64,000 nucleotides of DNA from a virus (Duplodnaviria > Caudoviricetes): IMG/VR virus record IMGVR_UViG_3300048802_000015, positions 17,906 to 81,905 of that record. One strand, 5' to 3'. Below, one piece after another: positions 3,507 to 40,341 of this stretch (its first letter is position 1; the number at the start of each line of letters is the position of its first letter). A program made the translations under genes and the position numbers. The notes beneath the pieces were generated by a model. That model was given only the letters and a program-made list of their open reading frames with translations, ran no database searches and had not been told where the DNA came from.

Positions 3507-4391
3507 TCACGCGGCTGCGTCCTCAGCCTGTGCCAAGATCGCCGCCTCCGCCAACCGCGACCTCAACCCCGATAGCCGCTCTTGGAGCTCGACCAGCGAC
3601 GTCCCCAGCAGCGCCTCGTAGCCGGCCACCTTCGTCGCGACTCGGTCGCATTGCTTAGACTTGGTCTTGAGCGCCCGCGGCCCGGCCTCGACGTTGGTCA
3701 GGATGGCCTCGAACTCTGCGATCTCGGCGCTTGCTTCGCGCTCTACCGCGGCGAGGATGGCCTGGACGGCGCTCTCGGTACGCAGGGCCGGAATCTCGTA
3801 GCAGACGTGGGCACCCACCGACCGAATGACCTCGGCGGCAAGGCGAAACTTTTCCACCGACGCCGGGGGCAGGAAATAGAACCCGCCGCGCGCCCGGAGC
3901 GCTACCGCGTCCAGCGACTCGCAGAAGTGCACCAGCAGGCTGGAGATGTCGGAGGGAACCAGGTTGGTCAGGTGGAGCGCGTGGCTGGCTCGGATAGAGT
4001 CCGCAAGCAGCCCGTCCGACGGCTCGATCGTGAGTACGCCGTCAGCGTCGACCGTTGCAACCACGGCCTGCTTGTAGTCCAGCTTCTCGCCGGCCGCCGT
4101 CTCCTCGACCAGGCTGTAGCCCTCGCGCCCGGCCAGGGGACGCACCAGCTTGCGCTGCTCTGCCAGGGTCTCGACCGCGCGCCGAAGGGCGGACTTGGGC
4201 GCCACCGCTTCGGGCACCAGCGCGATGTCCAGACCCTCCGCATGCCAGGCCACGCGCAGCTTCTCGACGTCTACGAGTCCGCTCAGTTCCCACCAGGTGA
4301 GAATCCCCGCCTGCGGTGTGCCGTCAGTGACGGCGAGAAAGTCTTTGCTCGTGACAATGCCTTGGGTCATTCCGGTCTTGGTCGTGGTCAT
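3507..4391 (-). CDS. DUF6744-like protein
   Basis: GILTWWELSG...SALRRAV...ALRARGGFYFLP, C-terminal coiled coil; usual neighbour of AAA/VWA pairs; GGAGG RBS. Confidence 0.65.
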   Translation of the reverse strand: MTTTKTGMTQGIVTSKDFLAVTDGTPQAGILTWWELSGLVDVEKLRVAWHAEGLDIALVPEAVAPKSALRRAVETLAEQRKLVRPLAGREGYSLVEETAAGEKLDYKQAVVATVDADGVLTIEPSDGLLADSIRASHALHLTNLVPSDISSLLVHFCESLDAVALRARGGFYFLPPASVEKFRLAAEVIRSVGAHVCYEIPALRTESAVQAILAAVEREASAEIAEFEAILTNVEAGPRALKTKSKQCDRVATKVAGYEALLGTSLVELQERLSGLRSRLAEAAILAQAEDAAA

Positions 4392-4861: not shown

Positions 4862-4940
4862 CCGCGTAGGTTTCACGTGAAGTATTTGATCGTCTATTTC
4901 ACGGTAACAGTAGAACTATTCTTGCACAGTCTAGCTAGTT
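4862..4940 (-). promoter_or_regulatory. AT-rich intergenic region, likely promoter/operator
   Basis: Local AT richness; perfect palindrome TTCACGTGAA at 4872-4881. Confidence 0.4.
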
Positions 4941-4943
4941 CCG

Positions 4944-6209
4944 CTAGTCCTTTATGACGATTTGTTTGCCCCACCCGCACGGCGCCGACGAGTACGGCCC
5001 GACGAGGATCCAGATCGTATCGAACCCGCGTGGCGCTGCCGCCGGTGCCGGCCCCTGCCCGTCGGTCACGAACACGAACAGGTCGACCTTCGGGCGCAGC
5101 TCTTCTACCGCGTGGAATATCGGGCAGAAATCCGTGCCCCCACCTCCTTTGAGCTGGTTCGCCAGCTCGGCCGCGGTTCGTACCTCCCGCGTCTCGTGCA
5201 CGGCCGCGTCGCAGGCCAGGAAGGTGATGGGCGTCCCGATGGCCCGCAGGCATCCCTGCGCCTCTGATACAGCCCGCACCAGCTCGTCGTGGCCCATACT
5301 GCCGCTGGTGTCCACCCCGAACGCTACGCGGGGCCGTGGCGCGCACAGGGCGGGCATCAATGGCGTACTGCCGCCCAAGGCGCGCGCGACCGCCCCAAAC
5401 GCAGCCTGGCGTCGTGAGAAGCGCGTGCGGGTGTAGTCGACCCTGCCCGCGATGGTCGCCACCCCGGCCCGGATGGCGCGGCGTAGCTGGTCCTGCCAGC
5501 GGACCTTCGGCGGCTGGAGCTCGGACTCGGCCCAGACCAGTAGGCCGCCCGGCACACTGCCCCGGCCCTTCTGCGCGGCGTGCTGCTGGATTGCCTCGGC
5601 GACGTCTCGGCGGATGCGGTCCAGGTCGGCCGCGCTCCGGCCCTTGGCGCCGGCCGCGCCCTCCGGCTCGCCGTCCACCGTGGGGCCGCCCGAGCCAGAG
5701 CCGCAGCGCCCACGCGCGACGTCTGCCTTGCCATTGCCCGGCTTGCCTTCACCGGCCTTGCCCGAGCCGCCGGACTTGGCCTGCTGCTGCGCCTGCTTGA
5801 GTAGAGCGTCATAGTATTCCTCAGCCATCTGGCCGTTCTTCAAGCCGAACTTCTTGGGCAGGCACGGGTCAGGAAGCAAGTCTTCTCGAAGATCATCATT
5901 CACTTCCAGATCGACGGCTACCCCGGCCACCTCCCGGTCCACCTGCGGAATGGCGTTCATCCGTTCGAGGTGCCGGCGCAGAAGGTGGAGCAGCTCGTGC
6001 GCTACGACCTCGCCCGCCTGGGGCGCCGTGATGGCCAGTAGGAACTCCGGGTCCACCAGCAAGATGCCGGTTGCTGTGATGGCCATGGTCCCGACGGGGA
6101 CGAACCGACGAACGAGCCCCGAGAAGCCCGTAGCAAAATAGGGGAACCTTTGCTCGGCCGCGATGATGGCCGCCGAGAGGCGTTGCCCGTCGGTCAGGTT
6201 CGGATCCAC
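4944..6209 (-). CDS. DUF2201-type metallopeptidase/VWA domain protein
   Basis: VAHELLHLLRRH (HExxH), Gly/Lys-rich linker, GVDTSGSMG (MIDAS DxSxS), KGGGGTDF, FVFVTDG. Confidence 0.9.
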   Translation of the reverse strand: MDPNLTDGQRLSAAIIAAEQRFPYFATGFSGLVRRFVPVGTMAITATGILLVDPEFLLAITAPQAGEVVAHELLHLLRRHLERMNAIPQVDREVAGVAVDLEVNDDLREDLLPDPCLPKKFGLKNGQMAEEYYDALLKQAQQQAKSGGSGKAGEGKPGNGKADVARGRCGSGSGGPTVDGEPEGAAGAKGRSAADLDRIRRDVAEAIQQHAAQKGRGSVPGGLLVWAESELQPPKVRWQDQLRRAIRAGVATIAGRVDYTRTRFSRRQAAFGAVARALGGSTPLMPALCAPRPRVAFGVDTSGSMGHDELVRAVSEAQGCLRAIGTPITFLACDAAVHETREVRTAAELANQLKGGGGTDFCPIFHAVEELRPKVDLFVFVTDGQGPAPAAAPRGFDTIWILVGPYSSAPCGWGKQIVIKD

Positions 6210-24470: not shown

Positions 24471-24958
24471 GACAGAGGCAGGGCATAGCACCGTCTCCCC
24501 TCCTCCTCTCTGGGGACTCGGTAGGGTCCGCAGAAACGATAGGGATCGCGAGCGAGCTATCAGAGGCAGAGCGCGACTTCTGGCGAGCCACACTGGGGAC
24601 GATGTGTGTGGGTGCTTCTCGTCTTGCTCTTCGGGTGGGATCGCAAGCGATCCGCCCTGGCTGGTGAGTCCAGGCATGCGCCCCTCATAGCGCAGGCCCC
24701 GCCTTCTTCCACGGCCGGTGTGATCCGTGGCCCTCCGGGCGTTGGGACTGATAGGGCCGTCGCCCTGGTCCGCATTTCGTCTCCCGACGTTACTGCGCGA
24801 CTCCAGCCCGGCGTGAAAGCCGGAACAGCGCCCGAACCGGCGCCAGTAGCAGTCCTCTTGACGAGGACCCAGGCATGTGGGAAAGTCTTCATGTCTTGGT
24901 CGCGCTTGACAGCATAGCGCCCCGCCGGCCTCAAAGCTAGCGGGGCGTTCGGCTGTCT
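24471..24958 (-). ncRNA. Candidate large structured ncRNA, element A (homologous to 49660-50078)
   Basis: No credible ORF; many hairpins; six sequence blocks shared in order with element B; GACAG...CTGTC ends. Confidence 0.65.
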
Positions 24959-34026: not shown

Positions 34027-34440
34027 TCAGTGGAAAACGGGGATGTTCAGCGGCAGTCTGCCGCCCGATTGGAAAGCGGAAGCGTAGGCGTTAATGGGCG
34101 CCCCGAGATTGTCGTAGAGCTTCTGGACCCAGTAGCGGTACTCGCCACGAAGCTGGTCTGCCTCGTCCGGGTTCAGGTCAATCTCATCAACGGACTTGGC
34201 CACCATGCGGGTCTGGGACCCGAAGATGTTGGCCTCGGTAGCGTCGCACCTGGCGACCAAGGTCCGGATGATGGCGATGGCGCTCTCGGGGATGTGCTCC
34301 ATCGCCGACTCCACCAGAAACGCCGGCTGCGTGGCCGCAGGTACACCAAGAATGATCGCGCTGGCGGGGAAAATCTGCAAATAGCCGCCGTGATAGCGGA
34401 TCCGCGCCTTCTCCTCTTCTGTGAGAACCGCGTTCGCCAT
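34027..34440 (-). CDS. Head-tail adaptor
   Basis: LTEEEKARIRYHGGY...; QLRGEYRYWVQKLYDNLG. Confidence 0.7.
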   Translation of the reverse strand: MANAVLTEEEKARIRYHGGYLQIFPASAIILGVPAATQPAFLVESAMEHIPESAIAIIRTLVARCDATEANIFGSQTRMVAKSVDEIDLNPDEADQLRGEYRYWVQKLYDNLGAPINAYASAFQSGGRLPLNIPVFH

Positions 34441-34460
34441 CGTCTCCTAGGTCGTCGCGC

Positions 34461-34709
34461 TCAGGCGCCGACCTCCTCTAGCTTCACCCCCTGCGCTCGC
34501 AGGGCCTTGATATCGTACCCGTGGCTGGAGATCGTCTTGCCCTTGGGCAGCGTGTAGTTGGAACCACCGCGGGCAATCTGCGCCGTCTCCTGCACGAGGA
34601 ACTTCTGCTCCTTGTTCGGGTCGCGAGCTGCGGGCGCACTGTGCCCCTGCTCGTCGTTTCGCGGCTGCTGATTGTTGCCTTGGTTCCGGTTCTGCTGCTC
34701 GTTCGCCAT
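34461..34709 (-). CDS. Small head-associated protein
   Basis: AGGAG RBS; Gln/Asn-rich N-terminus, small C-terminal domain. Confidence 0.6.
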   Translation of the reverse strand: MANEQQNRNQGNNQQPRNDEQGHSAPAARDPNKEQKFLVQETAQIARGGSNYTLPKGKTISSHGYDIKALRAQGVKLEEVGA

Positions 34710-34741
34710 GACGTTCTCCTTCATTCCACGATGTGGAAAAG

Positions 34742-35065
34742 TAGACCAAAAGGGAGTCAGAGTGGGTCAGGACCAACGACCGAAGTCGAGGTCCTTACCA
34801 TAGCGCTGACGCGGCTAGGAGCGTACACCACAAGACTACCCTTTTGGCGTCGCAAACATGAGCGGGTAGGGCCGAAGCCCGCCGTCAACGTGAGCGACAA
34901 TGGCAGACCGAAGTCTGCCGCAAGGTCGGAACGAGTCCGACCAGTAATCGAAGGTCCGAAGACCGACGATATCAGTCCAACCGAAGTCGGACAGAACTTG
35001 CGCACGTGTTCCCGGCGTGAAGCGCCGAAAGCCTGGTGTCGATTGGGCGAGACCATTGTGCTGCT
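34742..35065 (-). ncRNA. Candidate structured ncRNA, element C (five cUUCGg hairpins)
   Basis: CTTCGG loops at 34986-34981, 34961-34956, 34913-34908, 34877-34872, 34785-34780, each capping a stem; long-range pairs ACAATGG/CCATTGT and CCAAAAGGG/CCCTTTTGG. Confidence 0.8.
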
Positions 35066-35069
35066 CTGT

Positions 35070-35099
35070 AGCCTATGCCCCGCTACAGGCCGCTGTCAA
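35070..35099 (-). promoter_or_regulatory. Putative sigma70 promoter for element C
   Basis: TTGACA (35099-35094)-N18-TAGGCT (35075-35070) in the 3' end of the HNH gene. Confidence 0.6.
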
Positions 35100-35915
35100 G
35101 TTCGACATAGCCACCTGCTCCGAAAGCCCACGAATGGCTACCGGGTCAAATACCCAGCGCGTACTACCGATCCTCTTGGCGTACTCGGCAAACTCTTCGA
35201 TGGTCCTGGACTTCTTGCTTGAGTTGCAACGTCGGCAGGCCGGGGCGAGGTTGTCTACCGTATCCACACCGCCCCGAATTTTGGGAGTAAGGTGCTCGAT
35301 TTCCAGCGTAATCGCATCTCCGGCGGATCCGCAGAAGACGCACTTCGACCCATAGGCCTCGACCAGTGTAAGCCATCCTCGAACCAGTACGGGAATCTCC
35401 TGTAATTCGCGTTCACCATAGACCCGCCGTCCCAATCGCAGCATCTCGCGGATCCGGTAGGTTACGCGCTTGCGGTCGCGACGCATGTACTCCCGATGCC
35501 GCTTCTTGGACTTCTCCGTAGCACGCCCGCGCTTACATGCCGCTCGATACTTCTCGGTCTTCTGGTAACGGTGCTGGGACTCAAGAAGACGGTCCGGATG
35601 TTCCGCTGCATAGCGTTTCCAGTGCGCCCGTGCCATTTCCTTTGCCTTCTCTGGGTTCTCTTTGGCCCATCTATCTAAACGAGCGCGCATCTTGCGCCGT
35701 CGTTCCGGGTTGGTCGCATAGTGCTTGTGGTCGGCGGCCTTCTTTTTCTCCGGGTTTTTCTTCTGCCATTCGACAGCAGCGATCTTCGCGCAGTCTTTAC
35801 AGTAGGCCGCCCATCCGTGCGCGTTCCTGCTCTTTGAACGGTAGAAGGACTCGCCGAGAACCTTTTCTATCTTGCAACGAGCGCACCGTCGTTTGTCCGT
35901 GGGCTCTAGATCCAT
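35073..35915 (-). CDS. HNH endonuclease (C-terminal McrA-type HNH, N-terminal CxxC Zn motifs)
   Basis: CARC..., YCKDC; long Arg/Lys-rich helical middle; CVFCG...LEIEHLTPKIRGGVDTVDNLAPACRRCNSSK. Confidence 0.88.
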   Translation of the reverse strand: MDLEPTDKRRCARCKIEKVLGESFYRSKSRNAHGWAAYCKDCAKIAAVEWQKKNPEKKKAADHKHYATNPERRRKMRARLDRWAKENPEKAKEMARAHWKRYAAEHPDRLLESQHRYQKTEKYRAACKRGRATEKSKKRHREYMRRDRKRVTYRIREMLRLGRRVYGERELQEIPVLVRGWLTLVEAYGSKCVFCGSAGDAITLEIEHLTPKIRGGVDTVDNLAPACRRCNSSKKSRTIEEFAEYAKRIGSTRWVFDPVAIRGLSEQVAMSNLTAACSGA

Positions 35916-35949
35916 GTGCATACAATAGCGCCTATAGCTGCCAACGAAC

Positions 35950-35977
35950 AAGAAAAAGCCCCGCCGAAACGGGGCCT
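35950..35977 (-). terminator. Intrinsic terminator after major capsid gene
   Basis: GCCCCGT-TTCG-GCGGGGC followed by TTTTTCTT on the minus strand. Confidence 0.85.
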
Positions 35978-36006
35978 TTCTTAATTCTTTGACGGGTTGC
36001 TATGCG

Positions 36007-37371
36007 CTATGCGCCATGGACGCACACGGAGCTTCTTTTGAAGGCCGCCGGGCTGCTCGTGGCGGTCGCATCGGTCGGGATCGCCCAGTCGCCGGACATC
36101 GACCAAGCGGCCGAGGTCGTCTGCTGGAGGCGGTCCAGAGGGGCGCGGAGGATGAGGCGGATCCGCTCGGTCATGATCTGCATGCCGCCGTTGACGACCG
36201 AGAACTCCCCGATCTTGCCTTGCACGCCAGCTTCCGAGATGTACTTCGACTCGTCGAGGAACTTCTCCTCGATGGCGCCCTGGCCAGTGACGATCGGGCG
36301 GTGCAGAACCACGCCCGCCGGGTTCGTGGTCTCGAACGCCGTGGTGAAGCCGTCCAGCGGGTCTTCGATCACCGTCGCGACCGTGGGGCACTCGCTGTTG
36401 CGGTAGAAGGTCGCGCCCAGCAAGAACGCGATGGCGAACTTGCGGTAGTGGATGTAGTCGGGCATCGACTGGTTGAGCCGCTGGAACTCGTTGTCACCGA
36501 AGATCTGCGACTGCGAGATCGGGTCGAGGTGATAGTGGTACGTCCCGTCCTCGTGGGTCGGCACGTTGTCGAATTGGAGCTGGGCGAGCTGGGCCCGGAT
36601 GTCGGCCATCCGGAACTGATCGGTCGAGGCCACGTCGTCGACGCGGGTGCCGCCGCCCGAGTAGAGGATCTGCGAGCGGTTGACAGCCAGCACCGCCTGC
36701 CGGTCCAGGGTCGTCACGTTCGCGGTGAGGGTCAGGGTGCCGCTGTGGATCTCGTCGCCTGCGATGTCAGAGGTGAAGCCCGTGCAGGTGTACGCCACAC
36801 CGTTGACCGTGATGGCGAGCGGGTTGGAAGCGCTGACGATGGTCGGCCGCCCGTTGAACAGCTTGCGAGTGAAGCCCGCAAGGTTCTTGACCGGCATTGC
36901 CGTTCCGGGACCGTAGGCGCCGTTGGCGACCGTGTTCCCCGCGACGTAGCAGTTGTAGAGCTTGTCGCGCACGGTGCGGTTGATCGACTGGCCCGCGTGC
37001 ACGCCGAGCTGGTGCATGTTGCGCAGGTACTGCGAGGCCAGCGTCACGTAGCTGGTGGGCATGTGGGTATCGATCGCGCGGCCAAACTGCTGCGCCGTCG
37101 CTTCCCACTGTTCGATCGGGTACTGCACCGTGGGCACTTCCTTGCTCGGGTCGAGCGGCCTCGTGGAAGGTTGGATCAGCCCCGCACGGGTGAACGTCTG
37201 GTTCGCGCCCAAGTTCACCGGCCAGAGCTCCGCCACGGCTTCGAGCCGGAAGAGCAGGCGCGGGAACAGAGGGTCGCGGAAAGTCCGTTGCAGCGTTCGG
37301 TCCTGGATGGCCGAGACGACGCCAGCGTTGAAACTGGTGTTGACGATTGAACCGTCGGGGAAGTTTGCCAT
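36007..37371 (-). CDS. Major capsid protein
   Basis: 454 aa after scaffold; AGGAG RBS; QWEATAQQFGRAI, GVHAGQSINRTVRD; followed by terminator. Confidence 0.88.
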   Translation of the reverse strand: MANFPDGSIVNTSFNAGVVSAIQDRTLQRTFRDPLFPRLLFRLEAVAELWPVNLGANQTFTRAGLIQPSTRPLDPSKEVPTVQYPIEQWEATAQQFGRAIDTHMPTSYVTLASQYLRNMHQLGVHAGQSINRTVRDKLYNCYVAGNTVANGAYGPGTAMPVKNLAGFTRKLFNGRPTIVSASNPLAITVNGVAYTCTGFTSDIAGDEIHSGTLTLTANVTTLDRQAVLAVNRSQILYSGGGTRVDDVASTDQFRMADIRAQLAQLQFDNVPTHEDGTYHYHLDPISQSQIFGDNEFQRLNQSMPDYIHYRKFAIAFLLGATFYRNSECPTVATVIEDPLDGFTTAFETTNPAGVVLHRPIVTGQGAIEEKFLDESKYISEAGVQGKIGEFSVVNGGMQIMTERIRLILRAPLDRLQQTTSAAWSMSGDWAIPTDATATSSPAAFKRSSVCVHGA

Positions 37372-40045: not shown

Positions 40046-40263
40046 CAACGGCCTCCCTTCAAATTCGCGGAGCTGTGGCGGTTCTTCACTACCGAACCGC
40101 TATCGGTCGGGTCGTCGTCGAGCCCACCGCTGGCGATGCGCGCCTCGCGCAGGTAGTTGGCATCGCCGGGCTGGCGCACTTCGCGCTCGATTTCTGTAGG
40201 CGTCTCGGCGTTCACCGAAGGGTGAAGTCGTCCAGACTCTTTTCCGGCCACCATGGTGAACAT
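40045..40263 (-). CDS. Small hypothetical protein
   Basis: 72 aa, ends NLKGGR. Confidence 0.5.
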   Translation of the reverse strand: MFTMVAGKESGRLHPSVNAETPTEIEREVRQPGDANYLREARIASGGLDDDPTDSGSVVKNRHSSANLKGGR

Positions 40264-40341
40264 CCTGTCACGGGTTTGCCGGCTCCGTCAAATGCCAATT
40301 CGTCGAGCGTGCTAAGCTGCATCCCGAAAGCAGGTGCCCTC

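Follow-up and report, generated by a model that had tools for sequence, protein, structure and literature searches.

What does a phage encode between its capsid gene and the small gene that follows, where a run of UUCG-capped hairpins occupies some 300 nucleotides of one strand? The locus that raises this question lies in a 64,000-nucleotide stretch (the window; 62% G+C) of an 81.9-kb IMG/VR virus record that was judged complete. Genes of the window run on the minus strand, where a scaffold-like gene, the major capsid protein gene, an intrinsic terminator, an ORF for an HNH endonuclease, the hairpin-rich region (element C) and a small gene, g_87, follow one another in that order (Table 1). The genes beyond g_87 on this strand have no known family, and no tRNA genes were found in the window. 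Element C is present in a single copy in this genome. An original prediction, made from the letters of the sequence, took it for an independent structured RNA of undescribed class with its own promoter, and considered a nuclease partner among its possible roles. We asked whether a conserved RNA is encoded here, where it begins and ends, and which of several possible functions best accounts for its setting.

Conservation of an RNA fold

The sequence features listed in the original prediction were all found on the minus strand. They include five C(UUCG)G hairpins, with loop centers at approximately 34983, 34958, 34910, 34874 and 34782, and a CUCGU-loop hairpin at 34942-34924. The hexamer CUUCGG occurs 29 times on the minus strand of the 64 kb, and five of these copies fall within 200 nt where approximately 0.09 would be expected, so that the clustering is indeed beyond chance. 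The minus strand folds at -144 kcal/mol, compared with -112 +/- 5.5 kcal/mol for shuffled sequences (z = -5.8). The plus strand folds with z = -4.8, as expected of helices, and is without UUCG loops.

Using the capsid protein as bait, we collected 25 viral loci, 51 metagenomic loci and one contig from a MAG. Both blastn and nhmmer located element C in the closest of these (L002-L005) at 94-78% identity, and, when four sequences were aligned without fitting to a model, RNAalifold predicted 98 pairs; compensatory double changes were observed at 22 of these, among them pairs of the long-range helix 34848-34834/34758-34745. Two successive covariance models, R1 and then R2, reached full-length members in increasingly distant loci. 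The family now comprises 23 members near related capsid genes, found with the covariance model, and three more found through independent sampling based on g_87; the copy in the window scores 310 bits against R2 (E = 6e-79).

Changes on both sides were observed at 95 of the 98 pairs in the 23-member alignment, a count that is inflated by the fitting of this alignment to the model. Of all cells, 90.3% pair; in controls with the partners displaced by 1-3 columns this fraction falls to 36-46%, and the covariation score falls from 0.63 to 0.07-0.11. None of 500 shuffles reached the observed values. Given the unfitted four-sequence result and the size of the margin, the inference of conservation at the RNA level is safe despite the fitting, and we conclude that the fold of this family is selected at the RNA level. 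The original prediction had allowed that the stems might be missing from relatives; they are kept, with compensatory changes far above controls. Many pairs are G-U, and since these positions would be A-C on the opposite strand, the RNA strand is the minus strand, which is also the only one to carry the UUCG loops. Both the architecture and the junction nucleotides are kept among members whose capsid proteins are just 52-57% identical.

The host clade of the family is a group of uncultivated soil and peat phages. A blastn search of element C against 50,697 public phage records returned no match, and a pattern for the conserved core, run on IMG/VR, returned the known loci and five chance matches that the model rejected. 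An alignment of the core by MAFFT, made without the model, lost the structure and was excluded. The MAG contig (L088) is 88 kb long and carries a capsid gene, an HNH gene and the RNA. The MAG is labelled uncultured Myxococcales; since the contig probably represents the genome of the phage, placed in a bacterial bin, it is weak evidence for a host; a search of 89 genomes of the MAG's order found no member, under stricter filters that also missed the known copy.

Two diverged loci carry arrays of up to seven cUUCGg hairpins in another arrangement in the capsid-to-g_87 gap (L012 1661-2030 and L015 6389-6720; fold z = -4.5 and -3.2, respectively). These arrays hold pieces of the family, such as the CUCGU-loop hairpin and a GGGUUA loop, and the model does not align to them in full.

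Architecture of the RNA

Element C is a member of an undescribed structured-RNA family of approximately 230-290 nt, built from peripheral hairpins and a core of two domains (Table 1). The loops of the peripheral hairpins are cUUCGg in three cases and CUCGU in one, and the number of these hairpins differs among lineages. In the first core domain, the cUUCGg loop and a 3-nt bulge are kept in more than 85% of members. The inner parts of the second consist of a helix (34831-34825/34767-34762) and two hairpins, one with a GUNA-type loop (34819-34798) and one with a cUUCGg loop (34795-34769). The outer, 14-bp helix of this domain shows changes on both sides at all 14 pairs; it is the helix with which the original prediction closed the 3´ domain, and its covariation in relatives bears that pairing out.

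The helix proposed to close a 5´ domain, by pairing the 35058-35052 side with the 34899-34889 side, fared differently. It is complementary on paper and was not upheld, since its 3´ strand is used by the covarying helix 34898-34894/34853-34849 and its 5´ strand lies in a part without conservation among relatives. This 5´ part of the element aligns poorly to even the closest relatives, except for an ATG motif at equal offset. It also contains an 11-mer said to be common to element C and element A, one of two other elements (A and B) at window positions 24471-24958 and 49660-50078 on the minus strand. The 11-mer is indeed present at 35021-35011 and 24817-24807, but it lies outside the conserved core, in a lineage-specific hairpin.

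Table 1. Features of the capsid-to-g_87 region, listed in the direction of the minus strand (window coordinates)
Feature	Position	Strand	Remarks
Scaffold-like gene	38319-37495	minus	
Major capsid protein gene	36007..37371	minus	phrog_1357, E = 5e-9
Canonical intrinsic terminator, 3´ of capsid gene	35953..35980	minus	
HNH endonuclease ORF, 292 aa	35073..35951	minus	PF01844 and PF14279 matches
Promoter-like site	35070..35099	minus	TTGACA 35099-35094, 18-nt spacer, TAGGCT 35075-35070
Lineage-specific 5´ part	35011..35065	minus	Two small hairpins, includes the 11-mer; folds locally
ATG near predicted 5´ end	35054..35056	minus	Opens 99-codon frame, stop 34759-34757
Conserved structured RNA	34722..35010	minus	13 helices, 98 modelled pairs; full match to R1 and R2
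Four peripheral hairpins	34995-34972, 34971-34946, 34942-34924, 34919-34902	minus	All four covary (helices 3-7)
Core domain 1	34849..34898	minus	5-bp closing helix 34898-34894/34853-34849 around bulged hairpin 34891-34856
Core domain 2	34745..34848	minus	14-bp helix 34848-34834/34758-34745 around three-way junction
U-rich stretch right after 14-bp helix	34735..34744	minus	Longest run here 4 U
Short last hairpin ahead of ribosome-binding site	34724..34738	minus	Helix 18 covaries
g_87, 82 aa	34461..34721	minus	Includes Shine-Dalgarno; AAGGAG 34721-34716, ATG 34709

Predicted promoter, start codon and 3´ end

The final codons of the HNH ORF, together with its stop, fall inside the promoter-like site ahead of the RNA. 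Its -10 hexamer, TAGGCT, matches TATAAT at three of six positions, and a simple consensus scan did not call the site. Among relatives, the arrangement TTGAC-N17/18-nAnnnT followed by ATG or GTG is present in 13 of the 23 members, the window included. The TTGACA-N18-TAGGCT promoter of the original prediction is therefore matched by a motif at the same place in at least 11 other members, with approximately ten distinct sequences among them, and, from its hexamer spacing and the position kept among relatives, we regard the site as a predicted promoter of the sigma-70 type. The start codon lies 6-9 nt after the -10 in 12 promoter-bearing relatives and 13 nt after it in the window; in one member (L009), the promoter motif is present and the start codon absent.

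A start codon so close to a promoter has a counterpart elsewhere in the window. A helix-turn-helix (Cro/XRE-like) gene of 76 codons (49275-49008, minus strand) has no ribosome-binding site, and its start lies 8 nt beyond the promoter-like sequence TTGACG-N17-CAGGTT; its mRNA is probably leaderless. Since this gene has the same promoter-to-ATG geometry, near-leaderless starts appear to be used in this phage-host system. A second leaderless candidate has a promoter-like site at 40291 and an ATG at 40254. The pattern TTGAC[A/C/G]-N16-18-TAnnnT has three sites on the minus strand of the 64 kb; the two other than that of element C are at 57195-57167, preceding a gene with a normal ribosome-binding site, and at 49382-49353, within a 650-nt gap after element B.

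At the 3´ end, a run of 6-8 U stands right after the 14-bp helix in ten members, nine of which have the promoter. Weak U-runs are found in nine of the ten members without the full promoter motif. The members without a promoter belong mainly to the sub-clade of the window, where the U-run is interrupted. As a candidate intrinsic terminator, the 14-bp helix encloses a 75-nt insert, an arrangement outside what a standard scan can score.

Position relative to g_87

Each member lies immediately upstream of a homolog of g_87, with a few to approximately 30 nt between the end of the RNA and the start of the gene, and approximately 100 nt at most. Sampling based on g_87, independent of the capsid gene, gave the same picture: the RNA is 18 nt ahead in L093 and approximately 100 nt ahead in L091 and L092. 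At least seven separate insertions were counted between the capsid gene and the RNA and none between the RNA and g_87, a distribution with a probability of approximately 0.01 if both intervals had equal odds. The inserted material includes an HNH gene (L048), two tRNA genes (L044), a zinc-finger ORF (L008) and, in L018, L019, L055, L047 and L088, one to three unrelated ORFs. The two tRNA-like sequences of L044 (approximately 3530-3690) stand directly upstream of the RNA's promoter.

More distant relatives leave no space for the RNA, since g_87 there comes straight after the capsid gene or after a different ORF. These outgroups identify the RNA as a clade-specific addition at this junction, which g_87 in general does not need. 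The g_87 protein has a conserved 45-residue, beta-rich core and is predicted to form a small beta domain; neither a family in Pfam or PHROG nor a fold match in PDB or BFVD was found for it. Its relatives number only 23 among 5.8 billion proteins, and these are metagenomic and all hypothetical.

A possible leader for the genes after the capsid gene

Tentatively, and with a rough probability of 0.45, we favor a role in cis, in which element C would serve as leader or attenuator of the genes beyond the capsid gene. The fixed position of the RNA just before one gene, together with its helix-plus-U-run end, suggests this role more than the packaging, protein-sponge or anti-defence roles that the original prediction considered. 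In most lineages, the RNA would form the first part of a transcription unit that begins at a host-type promoter, with a start codon at or near the 5´ end of the transcript. The peripheral UUCG-capped hairpins and the two-domain core would fold, and the 14-bp closing helix with its immediate U-run could then serve as an intrinsic terminator ahead of the g_87 ribosome-binding site. If the closing helix forms, a discrete RNA of approximately 270 nt would be released. If instead a phage factor, or a ribosome that translates from the 5´ start codon, prevents or overrides the helix, transcription would proceed into g_87 and the later genes. In the sub-clade of the window, where the U-run is weak, the RNA would normally be co-transcribed with the capsid gene; in the window itself, an HNH gene may have been inserted together with its own upstream terminator, with the promoter at the end of the HNH gene restoring transcription.

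Several observations sit uneasily with a leader or attenuator. A structured insert of 75 nt within the terminator helix is unusual for intrinsic terminators, and the U-run of the window is weak. No conserved alternative (anti-terminator) pairing and no conserved regulatory codons were found among the members. The frame from the 5´ start codon extends to the start region of g_87 in L018, L047, L048 and L055 and, in the group of the window, stops a single base short of where the 3´ strand of the 14-bp helix begins; since the stop falls at differing structural positions, a single mechanism of ribosome occlusion does not fit all members. Moreover, a strong promoter and a strong terminator around a conserved fold are equally the signature of a stand-alone small RNA gene.

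That alternative, a stable noncoding RNA gene whose product acts in trans, for example in assembly or in the binding of a host or phage protein, and which stays near g_87 through conserved gene order, is the main rival to the leader or attenuator reading, and we consider it rather unlikely. It would readily explain why the fold stands between a promoter and a helix-plus-U-run in 9-10 lineages, why architecture and junctions persist where capsid proteins are 52-57% identical, why the 5´-terminal hairpin of several members begins right at the predicted 5´ end, and why outgroups have g_87 without the RNA. It does not readily explain why insertions all fall upstream of the RNA and never between it and g_87. 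The sub-clade of the window, without promoter and strong U-run, also argues against it, since the RNA there would lie within a longer mRNA. In addition, the members show no long single-stranded seed that is conserved, and perfect complementary 10-mers elsewhere on the minus strand of the phage occur at the level of chance (24 versus approximately 17 expected).

The two functions could also be combined, which we think doubtful. In this case, element C would represent a new class of large phage RNA, with a conserved fold of several domains that doubles as a translated message with a near-leaderless start. Whether the closing helix forms would depend on a ribosome that enters at the 5´ AUG or on a phage factor, and the outcome would be either release of the approximately 270-nt RNA or transcription of neck and tail genes. 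The released RNA could in turn act in trans, on a host protein or on assembly.

More doubtful still is a passive intercistronic element, one that protects neighboring mRNA against exonucleases, keeps Rho from loading on a long untranslated stretch or provides processing sites, and whose action would depend on neither a ligand nor a particular tertiary fold. Such a role would suit three observations: almost every loop is a UUCG cap, a feature that stabilizes hairpins and does not serve tertiary contacts; lineages differ freely in how many peripheral hairpins they have; and diverged relatives carry different arrays of two to seven cUUCGg hairpins in the same place. Yet protection would not call for the covarying core seen here, which has two domains, several branches and long-range helices and keeps one bulge and one type of loop constant, and the gene upstream of the RNA varies, which argues against a 3´ stabilizer of the capsid message in particular.

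Known RNA classes and elements A and B

No match to any of the 4227 models of Rfam 15 was found in the whole window at gathering thresholds. At E <= 10, a search of positions 34300-36300 gave, over the element, just one chance-level match on the opposite strand. The expectation that no Rfam family would match element C thus proved correct. Of the broader proposal, an independent RNA of undescribed class, the structure, the strand and the absence from Rfam stand, and the suggested partnership with a nuclease does not.

Two classes were considered individually and rejected. The HEARO / IscB omega-RNA (RF02033) gave no model match, the neighboring 292-aa protein has the HNH domain only, and an HNH gene is absent from the vicinity of most of the 23 members. 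A group I intron likewise gave no model match; in all relatives the capsid gene terminates at an equivalent residue, and g_87 is equipped with a start and a ribosome-binding site of its own. We therefore think it very improbable that the models overlooked a known ribozyme or RNA class in element C, such as a group I intron in degenerate form: its size and multi-helix architecture, the homing-type nucleases that adjoin it in some lineages and its status as an insertion relative to outgroups would fit such RNAs, but no Rfam 15 family reaches E <= 10 save the chance match on the opposite strand, and no gene is interrupted, the end of the capsid gene being constant and g_87 having a ribosome-binding site of its own. 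A 2023 catalogue of approximately 10,000 candidate structured RNAs from IMG/VR (PMC10690425) may hold the family anonymously.

Elements A and B are a different family from element C. Homology between them and element C was considered and rejected, since model R1 gave a weak match alone (E = 0.5), on the plus strand, at 24733-24798 in the region of element A. Elements A and B have two blocks in common: on the 5´ side a hairpin whose G+C-rich stem immediately follows the preceding stop codon, and on the 3´ side a purine-rich block. At least element B contains GNRA-type hairpins, and neither element matches Rfam.

Coding potential

The 99-codon ORF that begins near the predicted 5´ end of element C (35056-34757) remains open in close relatives. 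Between the window and a 78%-identical relative, substitutions at codon positions 1:2:3 number 17:17:22, with no third-position bias, and the ORF has no Pfam or PHROG match. Frames that begin at the equivalent start in other lineages run for 47-102 codons in differing registers relative to the conserved helices; as a result of these shifts the peptides are unrelated among lineages, and L006 and L009 have stops in every frame. Element C is not a conserved protein-coding gene. It is accordingly very improbable that the region encodes a small protein (99 aa in the window) to which the RNA structure is secondary: a start codon is present at the predicted 5´ end in nearly all promoter-bearing lineages, and in 10 of 13 cases no other frame is as open as the one that it begins, but third-position bias, a family match and a conserved peptide are all missing, and two members are closed by stops in all frames.

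The HNH gene

In the closest relatives, with RNAs 94-78% identical, the RNA directly follows the capsid gene and there is no HNH gene; the ORF is absent at the equivalent place in L002-L005 and L037-L041. Conversely, L094 has an HNH gene in the same interval and no RNA. These comparisons indicate that the HNH gene of the window is a lineage-specific insertion and not a partner of the RNA, contrary to the nuclease-partner idea in the original prediction. Least likely of all the readings, therefore, is a two-component cassette in which the RNA is the guide or partner of the neighboring nuclease: the two are adjacent in the window, and L048, L088/L023 and L094 likewise have HNH genes in the stretch from the capsid gene to the RNA or g_87, but most members, the closest relatives included, lack an HNH gene nearby, L094 has the gene alone, the protein is a plain 292-aa HNH/endonuclease VII-type enzyme without a HEARO match in Rfam, and repeated insertion of HNH genes fits homing into a conserved intergenic site.

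Related HNH genes were located at L048 approximately 4900-5760, L023 6459-7241, L094 1489-2373 and window 35073-35951. At least four lineages, with no more than 54-66% identity among their capsid proteins, carry a gene of this type after the capsid gene and ahead of the RNA or of g_87; in both the window and L048, the HNH ORF ends inside the RNA's promoter. Their recurrence in this interval implies that they land there repeatedly, as free-standing homing genes would, and the pattern looks like repeated homing into a conserved intergenic site.

Comparison with known systems

The closest working likeness appears to be to promoter-proximal leaders that end in a terminator, none of which matched element C in sequence, size or detail. 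The late leader of phage lambda consists of the PR´ promoter, a 194-nt 6S RNA and the terminator tR´, which is overridden by Q antitermination. As in the arrangement proposed here, a host-type promoter in the late region of a phage makes a short RNA and a terminator precedes the late genes, whose expression needs read-through. However, the lambda leader is not known to have a large conserved fold, whereas element C has 13 covarying helices and its unit lies amid structural genes, and lambda needs Q, while no Q-like factor or binding site was identified for element C.

The put RNAs of phage HK022 act in cis and make RNA polymerase resistant to terminators; they are approximately 70 nt long, with two hairpins. 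Element C may resemble them as a promoter-proximal structured RNA ahead of phage operons, with a possible cis action on its own polymerase. It appears to have no sequence or model similarity to put, and its terminator-like helix is part of the RNA itself.

Actinobacterial cysteine-responsive leaders are ribosome-mediated attenuators with leaderless leader ORFs, and may share with element C a start codon at the 5´ end of the transcript, which is predicted here, an ORF that runs into a leader with a terminator, which here is putative, and a gene right after it. The leader ORFs of known attenuators are short, contain regulatory codons and act through mutually exclusive hairpins. By contrast, the ORF of element C has 47-102 codons, none of them conserved, and crosses one stable, conserved fold.

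The REP elements and the hairpins of the Rhodobacter puf operon are simple intercistronic hairpins that protect the upstream segment. They offer a possible parallel as stable hairpins between the cistrons of an operon that set different mRNA levels, but they are not known to have conserved junctions or long-range helices.

Among larger RNAs, HEARO / IscB omega-RNA is likewise a large structured RNA that adjoins an HNH-domain nuclease gene. Here, however, there is no IscB architecture, the nuclease is missing from most members, and the RNA is downstream of the nuclease gene rather than at its 5´ end. GOLLD and ROOL, like element C, are multi-helix phage RNAs supported by covariation, found in metagenomes and with no assigned function (bioRxiv 10.1101/2024.12.08.627333). 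They are 500-800 nt long, are often near tRNAs and form RNA-only cages, whereas element C is approximately 290 nt long, mostly UUCG-capped and tied to the start of one gene, and gave no match to their models.

Unclassed bacterial and phage RNAs of such size and complexity that are supported by covariation are few, and each one that has been characterized revealed new biology. The context of element C is unusually clear, with a fixed place before one gene, a conserved promoter, a 5´ start codon and a terminator-like end. Should it control entry into the genes beyond the capsid gene, phages would have a new way to time or balance head and tail production; if it is a free RNA, it would found a new family of phage noncoding RNAs. 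The analysis also removes a tempting false lead, an HNH nuclease with its guide RNA, and points to the intergenic site between the capsid gene and the RNA as a repeated landing place for homing-type HNH genes.
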